Virus record (IMG/VR): IMGVR_UViG_2648501299_000008
Length of the DNA stretch: 43,241 nt
Direction: 5' to 3' (one strand)
From: a virus
Taxonomy: Duplodnaviria > Heunggongvirae > Uroviricota > Caudoviricetes
Shown: positions 3,566-38,446 of the stretch, one piece after another
Layout of the letters: each line of letters starts with the position of its first letter
Numbering within the stretch: position 1 is the first letter of the stretch
Program-made: the position numbers and the translations under genes
The notes under the pieces: model-generated
Told to the model about the DNA's origin: nothing
Databases searched by the model: none
Seen by the model: only the letters and a program-made list of their open reading frames with translations

Positions 3566-4159
3566 TTATGAATAATTGAAAATGATGTTCAGATGGGATG
3601 GGGCAATTTTGTTGATTGAACACTCCAGTTGTTTATTGCCCCACGATGCGAGCGGATCTCCGCAGTAGGACGCGCCAGCAAGCGAATACTTGATCGTTGT
3701 TTGTGGCGCATTTATCCGCCAGGTAAATGGCCACTCGTCACCGTTAAGCGCATCACCGCATACTGACATGCCACTCATAGCGGGCCGGAACTGTGTGATA
3801 GTGATGGTATAACCAAGAGCTGCAGCCACCCGGATGTAATAATCGCGGTTCAGGCCGCCGGTGCTGATTAACTTTGCCACCACGGCGCGCTGGCGATCGC
3901 TGACGCCACCGGATTCACCAATCCCACAATCATCTGGTAACCCCAGAGAGCTTTCCCATTCTGACAACATTACCGTCGCTGTAGGGGGAAAAGCACCAGT
4001 AATCAGGCTTTGCGCATCGTTGTCAGAACGCTGAAACGCGCTGCCCAGTGCCCGTAATACCGCAGCCTGTACCGTTCTTTGCGACCGGGGCCACGCCCTG
4101 CCCGTCGGTAGCAGCGCACCAAGCGCACCGGCATAATCATTTTTTGAAAAGAGGCTCAT
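3566..4159 (-). CDS. tail protein, YmfQ/DUF2313-like (Mu gp48-like)
   Basis: 197 aa; gene order baseplate J -> this gene -> tail fibre, as in e14 and Mu-like tails. Start overlaps the upstream stop. Confidence 0.7.
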   Translation of the reverse strand: MSLFSKNDYAGALGALLPTGRAWPRSQRTVQAAVLRALGSAFQRSDNDAQSLITGAFPPTATVMLSEWESSLGLPDDCGIGESGGVSDRQRAVVAKLISTGGLNRDYYIRVAAALGYTITITQFRPAMSGMSVCGDALNGDEWPFTWRINAPQTTIKYSLAGASYCGDPLASWGNKQLECSINKIAPSHLNIIFNYS

Positions 4160-5298
4160 ACAAAATTCACCCCGCCAAGCACCGGAATTTCGCCAACAGC
4201 AAAGGTGATATTGGCCGTCGGAGAGTTAAGAATATAGCCCGTCGTGCCGCTAACACCGCCGATACTCCCGTTAATATCAGAGAGGTAAACTTTCCCGGAA
4301 CCATCAGGGTTAGCTTCATCAAAAAACAGCGCCGTCAGCGCGTCTTTTATCCCCTGAACTGTGGTGCTGTCGGCATTTTTGATCCCAGAGATTTCAATAT
4401 TGATGACTTTCTTGATCGGGGAACATACGAAAACAATGGCAGTGTCTGTCTGCTGCGGATAGATGTGGTCGGCGACAGCGAGCTGGTCTCCGGTGGCTTT
4501 AACAGCCCCCCAGTCCTCAAGTTGGGATATTCCGTCGGTACCGACCGGAAACCCACCATTGTCATTCCGATCACACATGATATACACGCCAACGGTCCCG
4601 GCCCCGTTCAGACGCCGCTTTACCCACGCGCGGGTGACGCCCGAAACCTCAAGCGCCCATTTTTTATAATCGGCGTCGCTTCCACCCTGAGGCGGATTCT
4701 GCCATGCCAGCAAGCCACGACTGCGAAAATCCTCTTCCGTTTCAATATCGGCTCCGCCGGTCGCAGCGGACAGTAACGTTACCTGTGGATCCACGCCAGC
4801 AATATTCGCGTCCAGGGTCATTATGGTCCCGGCATCAGCGTTACCGCGCGCGCCTCCACCCGTTACATCACTGGTAATATCCGGCAGTATGGCCGTCACC
4901 GCGACGATACCAAATCCATCTGCCTGAATTTTAAGATCTGCATCCGTCCGGTACTGGTATCCGTCCCCGCGGTTAATGATCGAGCCAACAGGGATAATAC
5001 AGTCAACACTGCCACTAGCCTGTACCGCAGGCGACTTCGCCGCTGCAGCTGGTTTTCTGAATACCTGCTTAAGGGCCATCCACCCGGCGAGATACTCATC
5101 GGTAGAGGTAAACGGGTTTGTCTGCAGGGCAATATAGTCAAGGTAGGCGTAATGCAGATGCCCCATCCCCGCATCCATGTCAGCCAGTACCTTCAGGTTC
5201 GCGAAGCGCAGGAGCGCACCAACATCCTCAAGCTCCGCCTGCATAAATTTCCGGTTTCCGTCGCGGAGTTCGCTCAGCGTCGGTCGTTTAAACGGCAT
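4156..5298 (-). CDS. baseplate J-like protein (Mu gp47-like)
   Basis: 380 aa from the internal ATG at 5296-5298 (MPFKRPTLSELR...), which abuts the upstream stop at 5300-5302. The longer tool ORF overlaps the upstream gene. Confidence 0.75.
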   Translation of the reverse strand: MPFKRPTLSELRDGNRKFMQAELEDVGALLRFANLKVLADMDAGMGHLHYAYLDYIALQTNPFTSTDEYLAGWMALKQVFRKPAAAAKSPAVQASGSVDCIIPVGSIINRGDGYQYRTDADLKIQADGFGIVAVTAILPDITSDVTGGGARGNADAGTIMTLDANIAGVDPQVTLLSAATGGADIETEEDFRSRGLLAWQNPPQGGSDADYKKWALEVSGVTRAWVKRRLNGAGTVGVYIMCDRNDNGGFPVGTDGISQLEDWGAVKATGDQLAVADHIYPQQTDTAIVFVCSPIKKVINIEISGIKNADSTTVQGIKDALTALFFDEANPDGSGKVYLSDINGSIGGVSGTTGYILNSPTANITFAVGEIPVLGGVNFV

Positions 5299-6318: not shown

Positions 6319-7400
6319 GTATTGAATCCCGCCAGGTTCTGGTAGAAGGCATATGGCTGAACGGAGAATGCTTCAGGCGGCATCAGCGTCATGCGTGCAT
6401 GGGTGCCGTAGTCATCGCGCATATAGGTGACTTCTGCCAGTAGCAATTCAGTCTTCGGCAACCGTAAGGTGGGAAGATCAACGGGGATCAATGTGTTTGG
6501 TTCCCACAGTTTCCCGTCTTTATCCCGCCAGGAATCGATGGTTACCGAGAGCTGTTTTGAACGTCCGTACCGCCGGTTCATTTCCCAGTCGATCGCACTT
6601 TGTGCCTGTTGAGTAGCCATCAGGGTACTTTCCACAATCGATATATGTTTTCGGTACCGCATGCGGGCGGCCTCCGGATCTCTCGCCGTTGCCAGAGTCA
6701 CAGCGTCATAGGCCGTATCAGGCGAATACCCTGCAATTGGAGAAACGCTCATTGATACACCGACATAATCTGAAAACCTGTCAGCCATCGATTTGCGGTA
6801 GTATGCCTGCTCGACATTTACCCCTTCGGCTATCCCACTTGCCGCACGACGTGTTCCCACCCGGGTCAGTAACAGGTTTCCATCGGGCTGATCGTAGTAA
6901 AGCAGAGCAGACCATCTGGCCACCCGATCGATGACTTCTTGCGGAGACTCACCCCAGTTCAGAGTGAACTGGGGTACCTTCACAAGTTCATCAACATCCG
7001 TGGTTACGGTGATGCCGTAGTAGGATGCCAGGCGAGAAGCAATTTCAAGCGCATTACTGGCATTGATGACGTTGTTAGGCCACTCGGCTGAGCAATCCAC
7101 CAGGTCCTGACATTTGCTCCTGCCCGTGGCGCGGACCTCATGGCGGGAGCGCGATAGTGCGGGTTCCCAGTCATCAACATATCCCGTCAGTGTCAGATCA
7201 TCTCCGATACGAACTTCACAAGACATTCCCTCTTCAACGAGTTGACGATCTTCGTTGCCAGGGAAGTAATCCATTAGCCCAAGATCGAAATCAGAGGGAA
7301 AACGCTCAATACCCCGCGTTACCCGGACAGAATCCCACCCCTCGATGATTTTGCCGTCGACCGTCAAAGAAACAACATCCAGATCGCTGTCTGCATTCAT
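6315..7400 (-). CDS. tail/baseplate hub protein (Mu gp44 / P2 gpD-like)
   Basis: 361 aa between the DNA-circulation-like gene and the spike gene. Assignment by synteny and size. Confidence 0.6.
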   Translation of the reverse strand: MNADSDLDVVSLTVDGKIIEGWDSVRVTRGIERFPSDFDLGLMDYFPGNEDRQLVEEGMSCEVRIGDDLTLTGYVDDWEPALSRSRHEVRATGRSKCQDLVDCSAEWPNNVINASNALEIASRLASYYGITVTTDVDELVKVPQFTLNWGESPQEVIDRVARWSALLYYDQPDGNLLLTRVGTRRAASGIAEGVNVEQAYYRKSMADRFSDYVGVSMSVSPIAGYSPDTAYDAVTLATARDPEAARMRYRKHISIVESTLMATQQAQSAIDWEMNRRYGRSKQLSVTIDSWRDKDGKLWEPNTLIPVDLPTLRLPKTELLLAEVTYMRDDYGTHARMTLMPPEAFSVQPYAFYQNLAGFNT

Positions 7401-8800
7401 TGCCTCAGTACCTTCATGGTTGTCGGCATAAACGCCGGATGCGGTACGCGCGCTTCCTGTACCAGTTCATCTGCACGGGTGGCATCCTGGTATAATCGGT
7501 TTGCCAGCGTCAGCGCCGGAAGCGGCTGAGCGGTAGTAACCTGCAGAAGCTCGCTCAGACCAGAAGCACGCTCACTCATCGTAGAAAGGAATGCCGATCT
7601 GACGGCGAGAAGCGCGTTATACATATCATCGTCTGCGCGGTCTCCAGCCAGAACCAGCGCCGTATCAAGTTGCACAGAAACTCGTTGAGTTAACTCTTCT
7701 GCCTCGTCTGTACTGGCTGGTCTGGAGTCCGCAGCGGCACTGGTCATGGCACCAGTACATAGCACAACAATCAGCGTGTTCATGGTCGCCGAAATCGCTT
7801 TGCTGCTGTCGGACTGCTGGTACTCCGTGCTGATTGAATTAGCCAGTTTTTCCAGCGCTGTGATTCGGTCATTAACGCTGCCGGCGCTGTTAAGAATTGC
7901 GTTTACCACGTCGGCGACGCCCTGGACAAACTCATCAGGTGTGTTGGAGCTGCTAAGCTGGCTCGACCTGTCGGTAACATTTTTCCGGTCCATTACCGAC
8001 TGGGCTGTTACCTTGTCAGCCAGTGCTCTCTCATCATCCACATCAGCAACTGACGATTTGCCAGCAACAGCAGAGGAACTACCGCCCACAGAGCCTTTAC
8101 TGTAACGTCCGTACCGGGTATTCCCGAACGTGGAGTTCAGGACATTGCTGAGATTCGTGACCTGACTGATGGTGCTGTCAACCATGTTAGTCCAGAACGT
8201 GACCGTGCCTCTGATGGTGTTTATAGCCTGTGTGACACCGCGGATTTCACTCTTAACTCTGGCAATCGTGCTCAGCACAGCAGTGCTGACCAGTTTCAGA
8301 TAGTTGGTTTTCACCGTGGCGCCTGCAACGGTACTGCCCGTGACAGCAAACACTTTAAGCCCTGATTCAATTGCCATCAGGGTAAATTCAAATACTCGCC
8401 CGTTCTCCATCGAACCGGAAATACGCAAACCATTCTCAGGGATGGAAACCGTTAATTCGCCCAGTGTCGGATGGACAAGCGTACCGCTACCTTTTTGTTC
8501 ACAGGCTTCAATCAGTGACTGGCGCTGCGTGATAGCATCGCCGCCGCCGTAAACCTGGCTGTTCTGGATCAAGAAACCGCGAATAACAAATCGCCGTGTT
8601 GCCCGCCCGATATCCTCTATCCAGGCTGTATCACGGTAGGGATATTCATGTACCGCCTGGCGTCGGCCGTGGCTCCCTTCCTCAGCAACAATTGCAAATG
8701 GCACACCTCTGAATGAGCTGGGCCGTAACTGCCCCTGCCAGTCATCGCTGGTATCTCCCCCCAAAAGAGAAGTTATTGCGTCCTGGATAATTGACGGCAT
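7397..8800 (-). CDS. Mu gp43-like DNA circulation protein
   Basis: About 467 aa from the ATG at 8798-8800, with GGAGG 4 nt upstream. Lies directly downstream of the tape measure region as in Mu-like tails. Confidence 0.65.
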   Translation of the reverse strand: MPSIIQDAITSLLGGDTSDDWQGQLRPSSFRGVPFAIVAEEGSHGRRQAVHEYPYRDTAWIEDIGRATRRFVIRGFLIQNSQVYGGGDAITQRQSLIEACEQKGSGTLVHPTLGELTVSIPENGLRISGSMENGRVFEFTLMAIESGLKVFAVTGSTVAGATVKTNYLKLVSTAVLSTIARVKSEIRGVTQAINTIRGTVTFWTNMVDSTISQVTNLSNVLNSTFGNTRYGRYSKGSVGGSSSAVAGKSSVADVDDERALADKVTAQSVMDRKNVTDRSSQLSSSNTPDEFVQGVADVVNAILNSAGSVNDRITALEKLANSISTEYQQSDSSKAISATMNTLIVVLCTGAMTSAAADSRPASTDEAEELTQRVSVQLDTALVLAGDRADDDMYNALLAVRSAFLSTMSERASGLSELLQVTTAQPLPALTLANRLYQDATRADELVQEARVPHPAFMPTTMKVLRQ

Positions 8801-31731: not shown

Positions 31732-31823
31732 GGAGGGTTGGCCGAGTGGTTGATGGCACCTCACTGATAATGAGGCGTACGGGCTATAAACCCGTACCGC
31801 GGGTTCGAACCCCGCACCCTATT
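31732..31823 (+). tRNA. tRNA-like element, class-II (long variable arm) architecture, anticodon GAU; probably degenerate
   Basis: Hand fold: acceptor GGAGGGT/ACCCTAT (5 Watson-Crick pairs, one G-U, one G-A mismatch); 3-bp D stem GCC/GGC with GAGTGGTTGAT loop; anticodon stem CCTCA/TGAGG with loop CTGATAA; 23-nt variable arm with 7-bp stem; T arm GCGGG-TTCGAAC-CCCGC; no encoded CCA. Confidence 0.45.
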
Positions 31824-32045: not shown

Positions 32046-32523
32046 TTAGTCCTTCACAAAGATAATCCAATGGGTTTTGTCGTTCTTCCCAGTACGCTGA
32101 CCAATTGCAGGTTTCACGTCAGTAAGAGCTAAAATCTGGCTAACCGGGATCTGCGTTTCGTTCCATTTGAAAATAAGCACGCCGCGCGGCCACAGCACCC
32201 GAAACGCTTCTTTGAAACCGGCGCGTAAGTCAGAGCGCCACGTTTTTTTTGTTCAGTCGCCCGTATTTTTTACCCATCCAGGCAGACTGGCCCACGCGCT
32301 CGAGGTGCGGCGGGTCAAACACCACAACCGGAAAAGAAGAATCAGCGAACGGCAGTGAACGAAAGTCTGAAATCAGGTCTGGACTGATAACCAGGCGGCG
32401 ACCGTCGCACAGTTCGTGCTCTTCGGCGCGAATATCAGTGAACACGGCGCGGGTGTCCTGCTTGTTGAACCAGAACATGCGGGAGCCGCAGCACATATCA
32501 AGAATCGTCGTGTTGTCGGTCAT
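32046..32523 (-). pseudogene. DNA adenine-methyltransferase-like gene interrupted by a frameshift in an A8 homopolymer
   Basis: N-terminal frame (ATG 32521-32523) encodes ILDMCCGS and VVVFDPPH motifs, then stops at 32230 just after the A8 run (T8 on plus strand, 32243-32250). The adjacent frame continues ...TWRSDLRAGFKEAFRVLWPRGVLIFKWNE... to a stop at 32046. Removing one A gives a continuous ORF of about 159 aa. Confidence 0.55.
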
Positions 32524-35647: not shown

Positions 35648-36331
35648 ATGAGTTTTTCTGAGCGATTAGATCGCGCAATGAATGAGGCGGGTTATACACA
35701 GGGCAAGCTAGCTAAGGCAGTTGGCATGGCACAGTCAAGTGTTAACAAGCTGCTAAATGGTGCATCAAGCTCAAGAAAAACGGTCGAGATAGCTTCTGTT
35801 CTCAATGTTCGCCCTGAATGGCTTTCCACGGGATCCGGACCGATGCGTAACGATGGCCAGCTACCGCCTCCCATTACCGCGACAAAAAAAGACTCAAACA
35901 TATTCAGAGTTGACGTACTTGACCTGACATTTAGCGCGGGGCCAGGTTCTTTCATGATTTCTGAGTTTGTTGAGGTTCTACACGCCATTGAGTTCACAAC
36001 CGAACACGCTCGTTCACTCTTCGGAAATCGTTCTCAGGAAGACGTAAAAGTAATGACGGTCGATGGCGACAGCATGTGTCCAACTATACAGTCTGGTGAC
36101 AGATTGTTTTTCGATATTTCTGTAAGAAACTTCAAGGTCGACGGTGTTTATGCGTTCGTTTTCGGACAACATTTCCATGTGAAGCGCTTGCAGATGCAGG
36201 GCGATAGGTTGGCAGTTTTGTCTGATAACTCAGCTTATGAGAAGTGGTACATTAACGAAGGTAATCAGGATCAACTCTACGTAATGGGTAAGGCATTGAT
36301 TCATGAATCAATAAAGTATAACCGATTGTAA
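35648..36331 (+). CDS. cI-type repressor (HTH plus LexA-like S24 autopeptidase domain)
   Basis: 227 aa; N-terminal HTH (GYTQGKLAKAVGMAQSSVNKLLNG) and C-terminal S24 domain with the GDSM serine motif and VKRL lysine. GGGGG Shine-Dalgarno. Confidence 0.85.
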   Translation: MSFSERLDRAMNEAGYTQGKLAKAVGMAQSSVNKLLNGASSSRKTVEIASVLNVRPEWLSTGSGPMRNDGQLPPPITATKKDSNIFRVDVLDLTFSAGPGSFMISEFVEVLHAIEFTTEHARSLFGNRSQEDVKVMTVDGDSMCPTIQSGDRLFFDISVRNFKVDGVYAFVFGQHFHVKRLQMQGDRLAVLSDNSAYEKWYINEGNQDQLYVMGKALIHESIKYNRL

Positions 36332-36375
36332 AACTGTACTTTTTATCTACTTTGGCCCAGAAAAGGATCATAATT

Positions 36376-36738
36376 ATGAAATCGGAATTATTTCATAGTG
36401 AAGCAAACTCCGAGATTATCACAGCGGATGAGTTCATTGATTTCATAAATTCATTCAAAAAACCAATAACTTGCCAAATCTGCGGGAACCAGTCATGGTC
36501 TGTAGTTGGTGCCTTTGATCTTGATGTAGAAGAAAATCAGCCAAAACATCATGTGATCGAAACACTTAGTTATGCACAATACAAACCTGATACTGATAGT
36601 GCTGTGACATATCCTGGCGGTATGCCACTATTTCGAATCACGTGTGATCACTGCGCACATGTACTGCTTTTTTCTTATAAAAAAGCCAGGACACTGATTA
36701 ATAAAAGAAAAGAAGATCAAGGAGAGGATGGGAAGTGA
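36376..36738 (+). CDS. zinc-ribbon-like protein of unknown function, co-oriented with cI
   Basis: 120 aa from the ATG at 36376 with AAAAGGA Shine-Dalgarno. Two Cys pairs CQIC...CDHC. Lies 45 nt downstream of the cI stop. Confidence 0.5.
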   Translation: MKSELFHSEANSEIITADEFIDFINSFKKPITCQICGNQSWSVVGAFDLDVEENQPKHHVIETLSYAQYKPDTDSAVTYPGGMPLFRITCDHCAHVLLFSYKKARTLINKRKEDQGEDGK

Positions 36739-37367
36739 TGGGCCCATCTCTCAAAGCTGTCCCAGACTGCGGTTCTGGCATTGATAAAGATGACCTGTAC
36801 CCCAATGTTCAAAACAGACTACGCGTCGATAAAGAAGAAATGTATACTAACTTTATCAAATCAACAGATGAAGCTAATGAAACTGATGGGGGAAATGAAA
36901 TGTCATCAGTTAGCCGTGAAGAAATGCAAGCACTTCTAGCTGCCAATAAGGCGGAGATGGAGTCCATTGCATCTTCGATTAGAGCTGAAATGGCTTTGTC
37001 ACGCGAGAATATGAACGTTCAGCTGGCATCGCTCAATTCATCTATTAGCTCTATTTCTTCTAAAATTGAAGGGAAAATGGATAGCGTTGATGGGGATGTA
37101 AAAGCCATCAATGGCAAATTCGAAGGTATACAAGGGCAAATTACAGGAATAAACACTGCGATTGGCGGTATTCAATCAGGTATTTCCACTAGGCTTGCTA
37201 TTTTTGGCGTTATCATTGCGGTTGTCGTTGCATTACCTAGTCTTGTTTCTGCCTTGAAGAGTGATCCGCCCGTAGTTCAACCAGTAGCGCAGCAACCTGT
37301 TATCATCCAATTACCTCAAGAACCAACTACTCCACGAGTACTTCACCAACAGGAAAAATCAAAGTAA
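36738..37367 (+). CDS. coiled-coil protein with C-terminal transmembrane anchor, unknown function
   Basis: About 209 aa (ATG 36738, or GTG 36735) overlapping the previous stop. Long heptad-like helical region, then hydrophobic LAIFGVIIAVVVALPSLVSAL and a Pro/Gln-rich tail. Confidence 0.5.
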   Translation: MGPSLKAVPDCGSGIDKDDLYPNVQNRLRVDKEEMYTNFIKSTDEANETDGGNEMSSVSREEMQALLAANKAEMESIASSIRAEMALSRENMNVQLASLNSSISSISSKIEGKMDSVDGDVKAINGKFEGIQGQITGINTAIGGIQSGISTRLAIFGVIIAVVVALPSLVSALKSDPPVVQPVAQQPVIIQLPQEPTTPRVLHQQEKSK

Positions 37368-37392
37368 ACCGGCATTATGCCGGTTTTCATAT
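37367..37392 (+). terminator. rho-independent terminator closing the cI-side operon
   Basis: ACCGGCA-tta-TGCCGGT stem at 37368-37384 followed by TTTCATATT; starts at the stop codon of the membrane protein gene. Confidence 0.6.
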
Positions 37393-37711
37393 TCCTTTTC
37401 TCACCATAGCAGTGACATCCCACAACACTCCTTTGTGAATCACATTTCCAACCGCGCGACGCTTAGTCTCCAAGCTATCTACTATCGCATCTCGACTTAT
37501 CACCACACCGTTGATTATCTACTCGACAACTGCACCGCCAATCTCGCCAGCCATGAAAGCAGCGCGATCTTCCAGCAGCTCATCACGTGACATATCCATT
37601 CCTAAACCCATATCAATATCCCCGCCTGGTGTTTTTTTGAGCATATCACGCATCTCATACAAAAATAAATCACTTTATAAATCAAATAAAAATCGGCAAA
37701 ATCACAATATT

Positions 37712-37753
37712 ATCGTTTAAGCGATTGATAAAATAAATCGCCTTAGCTATCAT
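37712..37753 (+). promoter_or_regulatory. candidate PL-type promoter with overlapping operator-like site
   Basis: ATCGTTTAAGCGAT (37712-37725) resembles the OR sites. TTGATA (37725-37730), 17-nt spacer, TATCAT (37748-37753) reads rightward toward the recE-side genes. Confidence 0.35.
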
Positions 37754-38307: not shown

Positions 38308-38446
38308 CGTAAAACCCGCGCAAGGCGGGATCTACGTCCGGTGGTACCGACCAAAGTTACACCGGAAACAACATTAAAACCAAAGTTAACCCAATGGGCG
38401 CTATCAATGGTCCGGGGATTCTAACACCCAAAAATGAGGATCTCAC

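Follow-up and report, generated by a model that had tools for sequence, protein, structure and literature searches.

The window analyzed here, a stretch of 43,241 nucleotides (IMG/VR record IMGVR_UViG_2648501299_000008), is a Rac-like lambdoid prophage of Escherichia coli that is 100% identical to sequence in NZ_AP021894 and in four other chromosomes. Directly behind its cI-type repressor gene lie two small genes, which we call open reading frame 1 (ORF1) and ORF2 and which encode a zinc-ribbon protein and a coiled-coil membrane protein with a single transmembrane (TM) helix. Comparison with related prophages shows that this gene pair is a discrete, mobile accessory cassette (a moron) of low guanine-plus-cytosine (GC) content in the slot between the repressor gene and pL, that pairs of the ORF2 family stand in for rexAB behind the lambda cI gene in phages HK244 and HK542, and that the variable N-terminal extension of ORF2 changes together with the soluble protein encoded just upstream. 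We propose, at a probability of roughly 0.45, that the pair is a Rex-like phage exclusion module that is expressed in the lysogen, with the soluble protein as sensor or regulator and the membrane protein as effector. The cassette itself is real, well defined, and widespread, and we consider it a strong candidate for a new system of prophage exclusion.

A mobile cassette in the rexAB slot

The limits of the cassette were set by comparison with L002, a related prophage of E. coli (NZ_CP062876) that lacks it. Homology in blastn ends at position 36313 of the window and restarts at 37382, which delimits an inserted segment of 1.07 kb (36314-37381, plus strand); L002 has about 90 bp between cI and a convergent 68-aa gene, and it retains both a homologous repressor C-terminal domain and a homologous copy of the 68-aa gene. 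An initial annotation of the window had placed a module at 36340-37392, nearly the same coordinates, and had described two co-oriented genes directly 3' of cI, closed by a strong terminator, in a region that is AT-rich compared with cI. All of these features were found where it had put them, and the GC fraction is 0.383 in ORF1, 0.424 in ORF2, and 0.405 over the cassette, against 0.452 in cI and 0.507 in the whole window. The same cassette, with homologs of both ORF1 and ORF2, is present behind a different repressor in an e14/CPS-53-like prophage.

The ORF2 family comprised 31 clusters when a single sequence served as the query and 118 clusters (at 90% identity) when a profile of the conserved core was used; all members are from Enterobacterales, and every one of them is annotated as "hypothetical." Among 5426 complete E. 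coli genomes, 63 carry the ORF2 core, each as a single chromosomal copy, and the host strains of ORF2-carrying prophages came from humans, poultry, pigs, and cattle. Since a scan of GTDB representative genomes yielded only 2 loci, gene context was taken from IMG/VR and from contig look-ups; 43 IMG/VR loci and further contigs were read, and 49 loci were tabulated. At 45 of these 49 loci, the ORF2-family gene has a co-oriented repressor gene no more than ~1 kb upstream. At least 10 repressor alleles are found in this upstream position, ranging from lambda cI itself to RacR-like repressors and including both S24-type and RacR-type architectures.

HK244 and HK542, two wild lambda-immunity phages, emerged only at the protein level; when the region was compared with 50,697 phage records by megablast, nothing matched. 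In both phages the order is pRM, a lambda-type cI, a partner gene of the phrog_5893 type, the ORF2 homolog, Timm, oL/pL, and N, so that the same membrane-protein family lies between lambda cI and Timm, which bears out the rexAB-like position suggested in the initial annotation. This is the slot held by rexA and rexB in lambda, between cI and Timm, upstream of oL/pL and in the orientation of cI, and a pair of the ORF2 family takes the place of rexAB also in several IMG/VR prophages with a 97-100% lambda cI. As in lambda, the gene for the soluble protein comes first and the gene for the inner-membrane protein second, and transcription from pRM/pRE is presumed here. Alignment showed that Timm of lambda and HK244 and the terminator of the window are of like design.

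In the window, the cI-type repressor gene (35648-36331, plus strand; Pfam HTH_3, 8e-8, and Peptidase_S24, 5e-17) is labeled a LexA family regulator by the Prokaryotic Genome Annotation Pipeline (PGAP). It is presumed to be the upstream gene of an operon and lies outside the mobile cassette. A 44-nt spacer with the ribosome-binding site AAAGGA (36332-36375, plus strand) separates it from ORF1; a promoter and terminator scan found no terminator- or promoter-like site in this spacer, and read-through from the repressor promoter into ORF1 would therefore be expected. ORF1 (36376-36738, plus strand, 120 aa) begins at an ATG that is called by PGAP and conserved in all homologs; the module start given in the initial annotation, 36340, lies farther upstream and includes a TTG at 36352. 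The long form of ORF2 (36738-37367, plus strand, 209 aa) follows directly, with the ORF1 stop and the ORF2 ATG sharing one base (TGATG) and with an alternative GTG start at 36735. An intrinsic terminator hairpin with a 9-bp GC-rich stem, a TTA loop, and a T tract (37366-37386; free energy of -12.9 kcal/mol, z = -5.2 against shuffled sequences) closes the operon and faces the convergent 68-aa gene too. Inside the cassette there was no Rfam match. On the 3' side of the hairpin are the convergent 68-aa gene, a pL-like promoter (37725-37753), and a ydaE/recE/recT block. Because the unit lies between the repressor and the terminator, with pL pointing away, it would by analogy with lambda be made in lysogens and during establishment and not in lytic growth, a pattern that would not suit a part in lysis or replication.

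The two proteins, their interface, and neighboring genes

ORF1 matches phrog_4293 (2.5e-33, positions 3-123 of 124) and ORF2 matches phrog_5820 (1.4e-70, positions 2-198 of 200), both of which are families of unknown function. Measured against an IMG/VR copy that is 81-86% identical, the ratio of nonsynonymous to synonymous substitution rates (dN/dS) is 0.059 for ORF1 and 0.055 for the core of ORF2. Given these low ratios and the PHROG matches for both, ORF1 and ORF2 are real genes under strong purifying selection and not chance reading frames. According to the initial annotation neither protein matched anything recognizable; this has to be qualified, since both proteins belong to PHROGs and distant relatives of ORF2 fall just below the DUF1640 threshold.

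The two CxxC pairs that had been noted in one of the proteins are CQIC (residues 33-36) and CDHC (residues 90-93) of ORF1. Its relatives numbered 4 clusters in a word-indexed search and 14 in an exhaustive HMMER scan of 1.84 billion representatives. Across 17 ORF1 sequences with identities down to 21%, the sole invariant columns are C33, C36, W41, C90, and C93, and for this reason ORF1 is, on sequence grounds, a genuine four-Cys zinc-ribbon family with predicted metal binding. The AlphaFold2 (AF2) model of ORF1, with a predicted local distance difference test (pLDDT) score of 85.9 and a predicted template modeling (pTM) score of 0.71, has a helix at residues 17-25, a beta-sheet at 41-100, and a basic C-terminal helix at 101-117; the protein thus has both the two family-conserved CxxC knuckles and the beta-rich model of a zinc ribbon. 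Searches of Pfam, NCBIfam, and PADLOC gave no match to ORF1, and PDB sequence-profile searches with the ORF1 and ORF2 families returned only coiled-coil or zinc-knuckle noise. In some IMG/VR copies the ORF1 homologs have altered 3' ends (L005/L050, 4634-5041, 135 aa, with a 50-nt overlap; L008/L049, 4420-4758, 112 aa, with an 18-nt gap), which may be due to frameshifts or assembly errors.

ORF2 has the long coiled coil, single C-terminal TM anchor, and Pro-rich tail described in the initial annotation, and these are preceded by an N-terminal extension (residues 1-54; 36738-36899, plus strand) that was delimited by alignment. The extension is disordered in the AF2 model (pLDDT <50) and hypervariable between lineages in both sequence and length (0 to ~110 residues). 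Its frame is open in every lineage, with a dN/dS of ~0.25 (range 0.19-0.61), and we therefore conclude that it is translated. Within it is the motif LKAV..CGSGIDKDDLYP, which co-varies with ORF1-type partners.

The conserved core of ORF2 begins at about residue 56 (SREE-x-A-x-L-x-ANKAE) and forms a predicted cytoplasmic coiled-coil stalk (residues 60-152; 36915-37193, plus strand; AF2 helix at 60-120), in which unbroken heptads run from about residue 60 to 150 and lead into the TM helix. Heptad core positions in residues 96-149 are mostly Ile, Val, or Leu and the flanking positions are Gly-rich, and indels among homologs are exactly 7 residues long; a beta-branched coiled-coil core favors trimers. 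The TM helix (LAIFGVIIAVVVALPSLVS, residues 153-171; 37194-37250, plus strand; AF2 helix at 149-173) is the sole strongly hydrophobic segment of ORF2, with a maximum Kyte-Doolittle mean of 2.66. Four of its residues (L153, F156, V164, and A165) are invariant, and G157, A161, and A165 show small-xxx-small spacing. The remainder of the gene, up to and including the stop (37251-37367, plus strand), encodes a Pro/Gln-rich C-terminal tail in which alignment revealed the motif QP(I/V)IIQ(V/L)PQ, with P187 invariant and Q191 and P193 nearly so; the dN/dS of the tail is 0.45. Since no signal peptide was detected in ORF2, the N-terminal region and the stalk are predicted to be cytoplasmic and the tail periplasmic. 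Curated-threshold searches of Pfam and NCBIfam gave nothing above threshold for ORF2, and sub-threshold matches to coiled-coil families in these databases (Baculo_PEP_C, DUF1664, P10, and MakE) were set aside as composition-driven.

Anti-Shine-Dalgarno ranking and alignment point to an internal translation start in ORF2 (36888-36902, plus strand), made up of GGGGGA, a 6-nt spacer, and an ATG at 36900 (codon 55). Every ORF2 variant has an ATG or GTG at the boundary between extension and core, and this boundary start has a top-ranking anti-Shine-Dalgarno match at proper spacing in 10 of the 13 distinct variants, or in 11 if a nearby upstream ATG in L044 is counted. Core-only genes of the ORF2 family also exist (L042, P0016, and P0122). 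It is probable from these sequence features that ORF2 gives rise to two products, a long one with the putative docking extension and a short one of ~155 aa that consists of the core only. A start solely at the internal ATG was considered and rejected, as the upstream frame is open in all lineages and under purifying selection.

A small gene was found immediately 5' of every ORF2-family gene that we read. Except at L042, where 90 nt lie between them, the partner gene and the ORF2-like gene of each tabulated locus (49 in all) either overlap, usually by 4 nt, or are separated by no more than 18 nt. The partners belong to at least four families, namely, the ORF1 zinc ribbon, a beta-rich protein of ~143 aa (phrog_5893), proteins of ~98-101 aa, and proteins of ~92-96 aa, and no mutual similarity between these families was detected by any of the comparisons made, including hhalign. 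The pair at every locus combines a small soluble protein with a coiled-coil protein that spans the membrane once. What the N-terminal extension of ORF2 follows is the type of partner, not the type of core: P0134 has a window-like extension (LRAVKDCGKDIDKADLYP) and an ORF1-type partner but a different stalk and helix that are DUF1640-like. In a blind test, an ORF1-type partner was predicted for P0017 from the motif FRVV..VDKEDLYPH in its extension, and such a partner was then found. This co-variation and the P0017 prediction are the main evidence from which we infer that ORF1 binds the ORF2 extension.

Distant relatives of ORF1 likewise each precede a single-pass coiled-coil membrane protein, and some of these proteins are not ORF2 homologs. 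The membrane gene is a true ORF2 homolog at L056, encodes a 96-aa coil-plus-TM protein at L052, and has the order extension, TM helix, and coiled coil at L053 to L055. Comparison of the ORF2 profile with the nonhomologous membrane partners by hhalign was weak, with probabilities of 16% and 10%. The genes that follow the ORF1 homolog in L053 (4356-4877) and L055 (414-962) encode a variable N-terminal region, a TM helix, and a C-terminal coiled coil, and faint motifs (RKELQESINMNRQEL and FDKIDAKFDKVESSF) are common to these proteins and ORF2, at an hhalign probability of 16%.

Several neighboring genes were also recorded. In one group of prophages (L009 to L019 and L025) a DUF3024 gene (113 aa, phrog_3467; 3996-4337, shifted in L014, L017, and L018) lies between the repressor gene and the pair, which means that the slot can hold three accessory genes. 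The convergent 68-aa gene of the window (phrog_3975; 37387-37593, minus strand) has an in-frame stop at codon 25 and is a pseudogene according to PGAP; the copy in L002 (5459-5665) is intact. The 68-aa gene was considered as a member of the module and rejected, as it is kept at this slot in most related prophages and occurs also where the cassette is absent. Just beyond it on the pL side, L002 has a RelA/SpoT-domain gene (6485-7600) that is possibly toxSAS/CapRel-like and may be other defense cargo.

The minus strand of the window carries a DnaT/O-like replication gene, a YdaT-like gene, and a cro/YdaS-like gene. Farther from the cassette are a tRNA-Ile(GAT) gene with an unusual length of 92 nt (31732-31823, plus strand) and a frameshifted gene for a class I S-adenosylmethionine-dependent methyltransferase (32046-32523, minus strand; called by PGAP in the identical prophage L001 at 2447-2924), near which lies a homolog of DNA polymerase III theta. 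A sub-threshold Rfam match to the Hfq-binding small RNA isrB (38309-38405, minus strand; 28.6 bits against a gathering score of 35) overlaps a terminator-like hairpin (38329-38315) between the ydaE-like gene and recE.

Proposed function and its alternatives

As a phage exclusion module, the cassette, inserted between the repressor gene and the immunity terminator, would be co-transcribed with the repressor in lysogens. ORF2 would be a tail-anchored inner-membrane protein with a long parallel cytoplasmic coiled-coil stalk, probably trimeric, and a short periplasmic tail. ORF1 would be a small cytosolic zinc-ribbon protein that docks on the variable N-terminal extension of ORF2, and a short ORF2 isoform, probably made from the internal start, would lack the docking site. 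The swappable soluble partner may sense a phage cue or restrain the membrane protein, and the oligomer of stalk and helix may be an inner-membrane effector that acts either by depolarization or leakage, as in abortive infection, or by blocking DNA entry. Interchangeable partners, a constant membrane part, a hypervariable interface, sporadic spread, and replacement of rexAB are as expected for a conflict system. It would be a further and tentative step, possible but short of being the likelier outcome, to regard ORF2 as an unrecognized class of modular prophage immune effector, with a tail-anchored trimeric stalk in the inner membrane, a hypervariable docking peptide that recruits interchangeable small cytosolic sensors (zinc-ribbon, beta-rich, and other folds), and two isoforms setting the trigger threshold, which would have replaced rexAB in natural lambda-immunity phages and spread through the Rac-like and lambdoid prophages of Enterobacterales.

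A number of results weigh against exclusion as the function. Homology to RexA and RexB is absent: the PADLOC Rex models, which do recognize the lambda proteins (9e-110 for RexA and 9e-61 for RexB), miss ORF1 and ORF2, and hhalign gave probabilities of 0.6% and 0.2%. Two of the searches that the initial annotation had put forward as checks also came back empty. PADLOC-DB v2.0 matched no model to ORF1 and, for ORF2, reached only PbeC at an E value of 0.019 over the coiled-coil stretch, so neither protein has a defense match there; Foldseek with the predicted ORF1 structure found no significant neighbor in PDB (best E value, 0.73), and BFVD has none either (best E value, 0.06); because the fold is without a significant match no particular sensing chemistry is indicated. 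The AF2 monomer model of ORF2 is of low confidence (pLDDT 58), too weak for fold searches. Literature searches found no study or phenotype of these proteins, and the ORF1 and ORF2 accessions are absent from the DefensePredictor supplementary files. At four loci (L039 to L042) the pair or the core lies away from a repressor gene, with three copies in tail-gene regions (L039 to L041) and one behind an ORF6N gene. Likenesses of ORF2 to pore-forming toxins and to DUF1640 do not reach curated thresholds, and the composition of the coiled coil might be enough to explain them. Finally, repressor-operon genes are not all defense genes, as this slot and other moron sites carry virulence or host-physiology genes too.

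This last point has its counterpart in a specific alternative, lysogenic conversion unrelated to phage, in which the pair would affect envelope physiology, stress tolerance, or virulence, like lambda bor and lom, and would exploit the strongly expressed repressor operon. A moron that is probably expressed in the lysogen, has a membrane product and no defense homology, and is carried by strains of human, poultry, pig, and cattle origin without an evident phage link would fit this role. However, partners that can be exchanged, an interface that is hypervariable, and a patchy spread over many prophage backbones are typical of conflict systems, and in lambda-immunity phages the pair directly replaces rexAB; we regard lysogenic conversion as unlikely. 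HK97 gp15, P22 SieA, and T4 Imm are small inner-membrane prophage exclusion proteins, and their example favors superinfection exclusion at the entry step in place of abortive infection, with the ORF2 tail (QPIIIQVPQ) disturbing the ejection or tape-measure machinery or an inner-membrane channel and with the partner doing no more than stabilizing or regulating ORF2. ORF2 is indeed a single-pass inner-membrane protein with a short conserved motif that is predicted to be periplasmic, and the core-only versions that lack the extension or a small overlapping partner (L042, P0016, and P0122) are what one would find if the membrane protein were able to function by itself. Apart from the motif, however, the tail is the least constrained part of ORF2 (dN/dS of 0.45), the long cytoplasmic stalk and the co-varying cytosolic partner would have no obvious role, and in the membrane partner of an ORF1 homolog at L053 to L055 the helix precedes the coiled coil and a tail of this kind is missing. 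Our judgment is that action at entry is unlikely.

The core-only gene at L042 also speaks against the idea of a toxin-antitoxin-like addiction module that stabilizes the prophage without specific phage sensing, with ORF2 as the membrane toxin and the small upstream protein as the antitoxin: a constitutive toxin expressed with the repressor would be lethal in a lysogen that has no small overlapping partner. The pair does have the layout of a type II-like module, being small genes coupled in translation with the one for the soluble protein in front, the partner co-varies with the part of ORF2 that it presumably binds, and a membrane-active architecture suits a toxin. ORF2 is, however, unlike any known membrane toxin, and many such modules act in defense, so that the idea overlaps with phage exclusion; addiction by itself seems to us very unlikely. 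A part in the lysis-lysogeny switch, such as modulating repressor stability, induction, or establishment, is suggested by the position of the pair, which directly adjoins the repressor gene and is presumably co-transcribed with it. Yet the same pair is found behind at least 10 unrelated repressor alleles of both the S24 and RacR types, is absent from a close relative with a homologous repressor C-terminal domain (L002), and has some copies in tail-gene regions (L039 to L041). A core switch component is not expected to be so portable or dispensable, and the portability of the pair across repressors and backbones, together with its dispensability, therefore argues against a role in the genetic switch, which we consider extremely improbable.

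If phage exclusion is the function, the effector would be of a new architecture, the swapping of sensors via a short docking peptide would be clearly exemplified, and a function would be provided for an Enterobacterales-wide family of "hypothetical" prophage proteins (118 clusters at 90% identity). Otherwise, the pair would still be a widespread lysogen-expressed membrane module.

Comparison with known systems

Two groups of membrane proteins resemble ORF2 in architecture. In CCDC90-like/DUF1640 proteins (PF07798; MCUR1 and CCDC90B), the C-terminal half is likewise a coiled-coil stalk with one C-terminal TM helix. Members of DUF1640, which occur in prokaryotes and mitochondria, are integral to the membrane and have a stalk at the C terminus (PMC4786415). 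The distant ORF2 members P0134, P0135, P0117, P0096, and P0122 align with positions ~68-171 of the 175 positions of PF07798 at E values of 5e-7 to 8e-5; the best of these relatives score 30.2-30.3 bits, under the gathering score of 33.5 bits, and the ORF2 of the window has no match to PF07798 at E values up to 1. The head domain of DUF1640 is absent from ORF2, which has the disordered variable extension instead (residues 1-59, pLDDT <50), and we know of no phage-related function for DUF1640. Small coiled-coil membrane proteins of phages such as XhlA (PF10779, Bacillus PBSX), and the ClyA-type toxins MakE and SmhB, also have a helical coiled coil together with a hydrophobic segment that inserts into the membrane. 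The matches in question are sub-threshold (0.003 for the 96-aa partner of an ORF1 homolog against XhlA, and 1.8e-4 and 0.04 for ORF2 against MakE and SmhB, respectively) and were not relied on. In addition, the genes for XhlA and the ClyA-type alpha-pore-forming toxins belong to a lysis cassette or to an operon for a secreted toxin; the pair described here belongs to a repressor operon.

In genomic position, the pair resembles genes of the interval between cI and N, which is a mosaic hotspot for lysogen-expressed accessory and abortive-infection genes such as rexAB and bstA, the latter driven in lysogens by the promoter of the repressor gene (PMC8585504, PMC7067206). Like the pair, bstA of the Salmonella prophage BTP1 lies directly 3' of the prophage cI gene, under the cI promoter, and occurs with varied repressors in many Gram-negative prophages (PMC8585504). 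BstA differs in being one large protein of the cytosol, with self-immunity conferred by a DNA element (aba), and it has no similarity to ORF1 or ORF2.

The rexAB-like reading given in the initial annotation holds for the position, the soluble-plus-membrane architecture, and the discrete cassette, and it is considerably strengthened by the comparative data; it does not extend to the proteins themselves, which are not similar to RexA or RexB. RexA has 279 aa, compared with 120 aa for the zinc ribbon of ORF1. RexB is polytopic, with four TM helices; ORF2, by contrast, joins a long coiled coil to a single C-terminal helix and a predicted periplasmic tail. The module is RexAB-like in position and logic and is not a member of the RexAB family. 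After more than 60 years of study, the mechanism of rexAB is poorly understood (PMC8585504). HK244 and HK542 show a second natural occupant of the rexAB slot behind the same lambda repressor, one that is built from much simpler parts, and if this occupant is a defense system, it could readily be compared with Rex in lambda strains that are otherwise isogenic.

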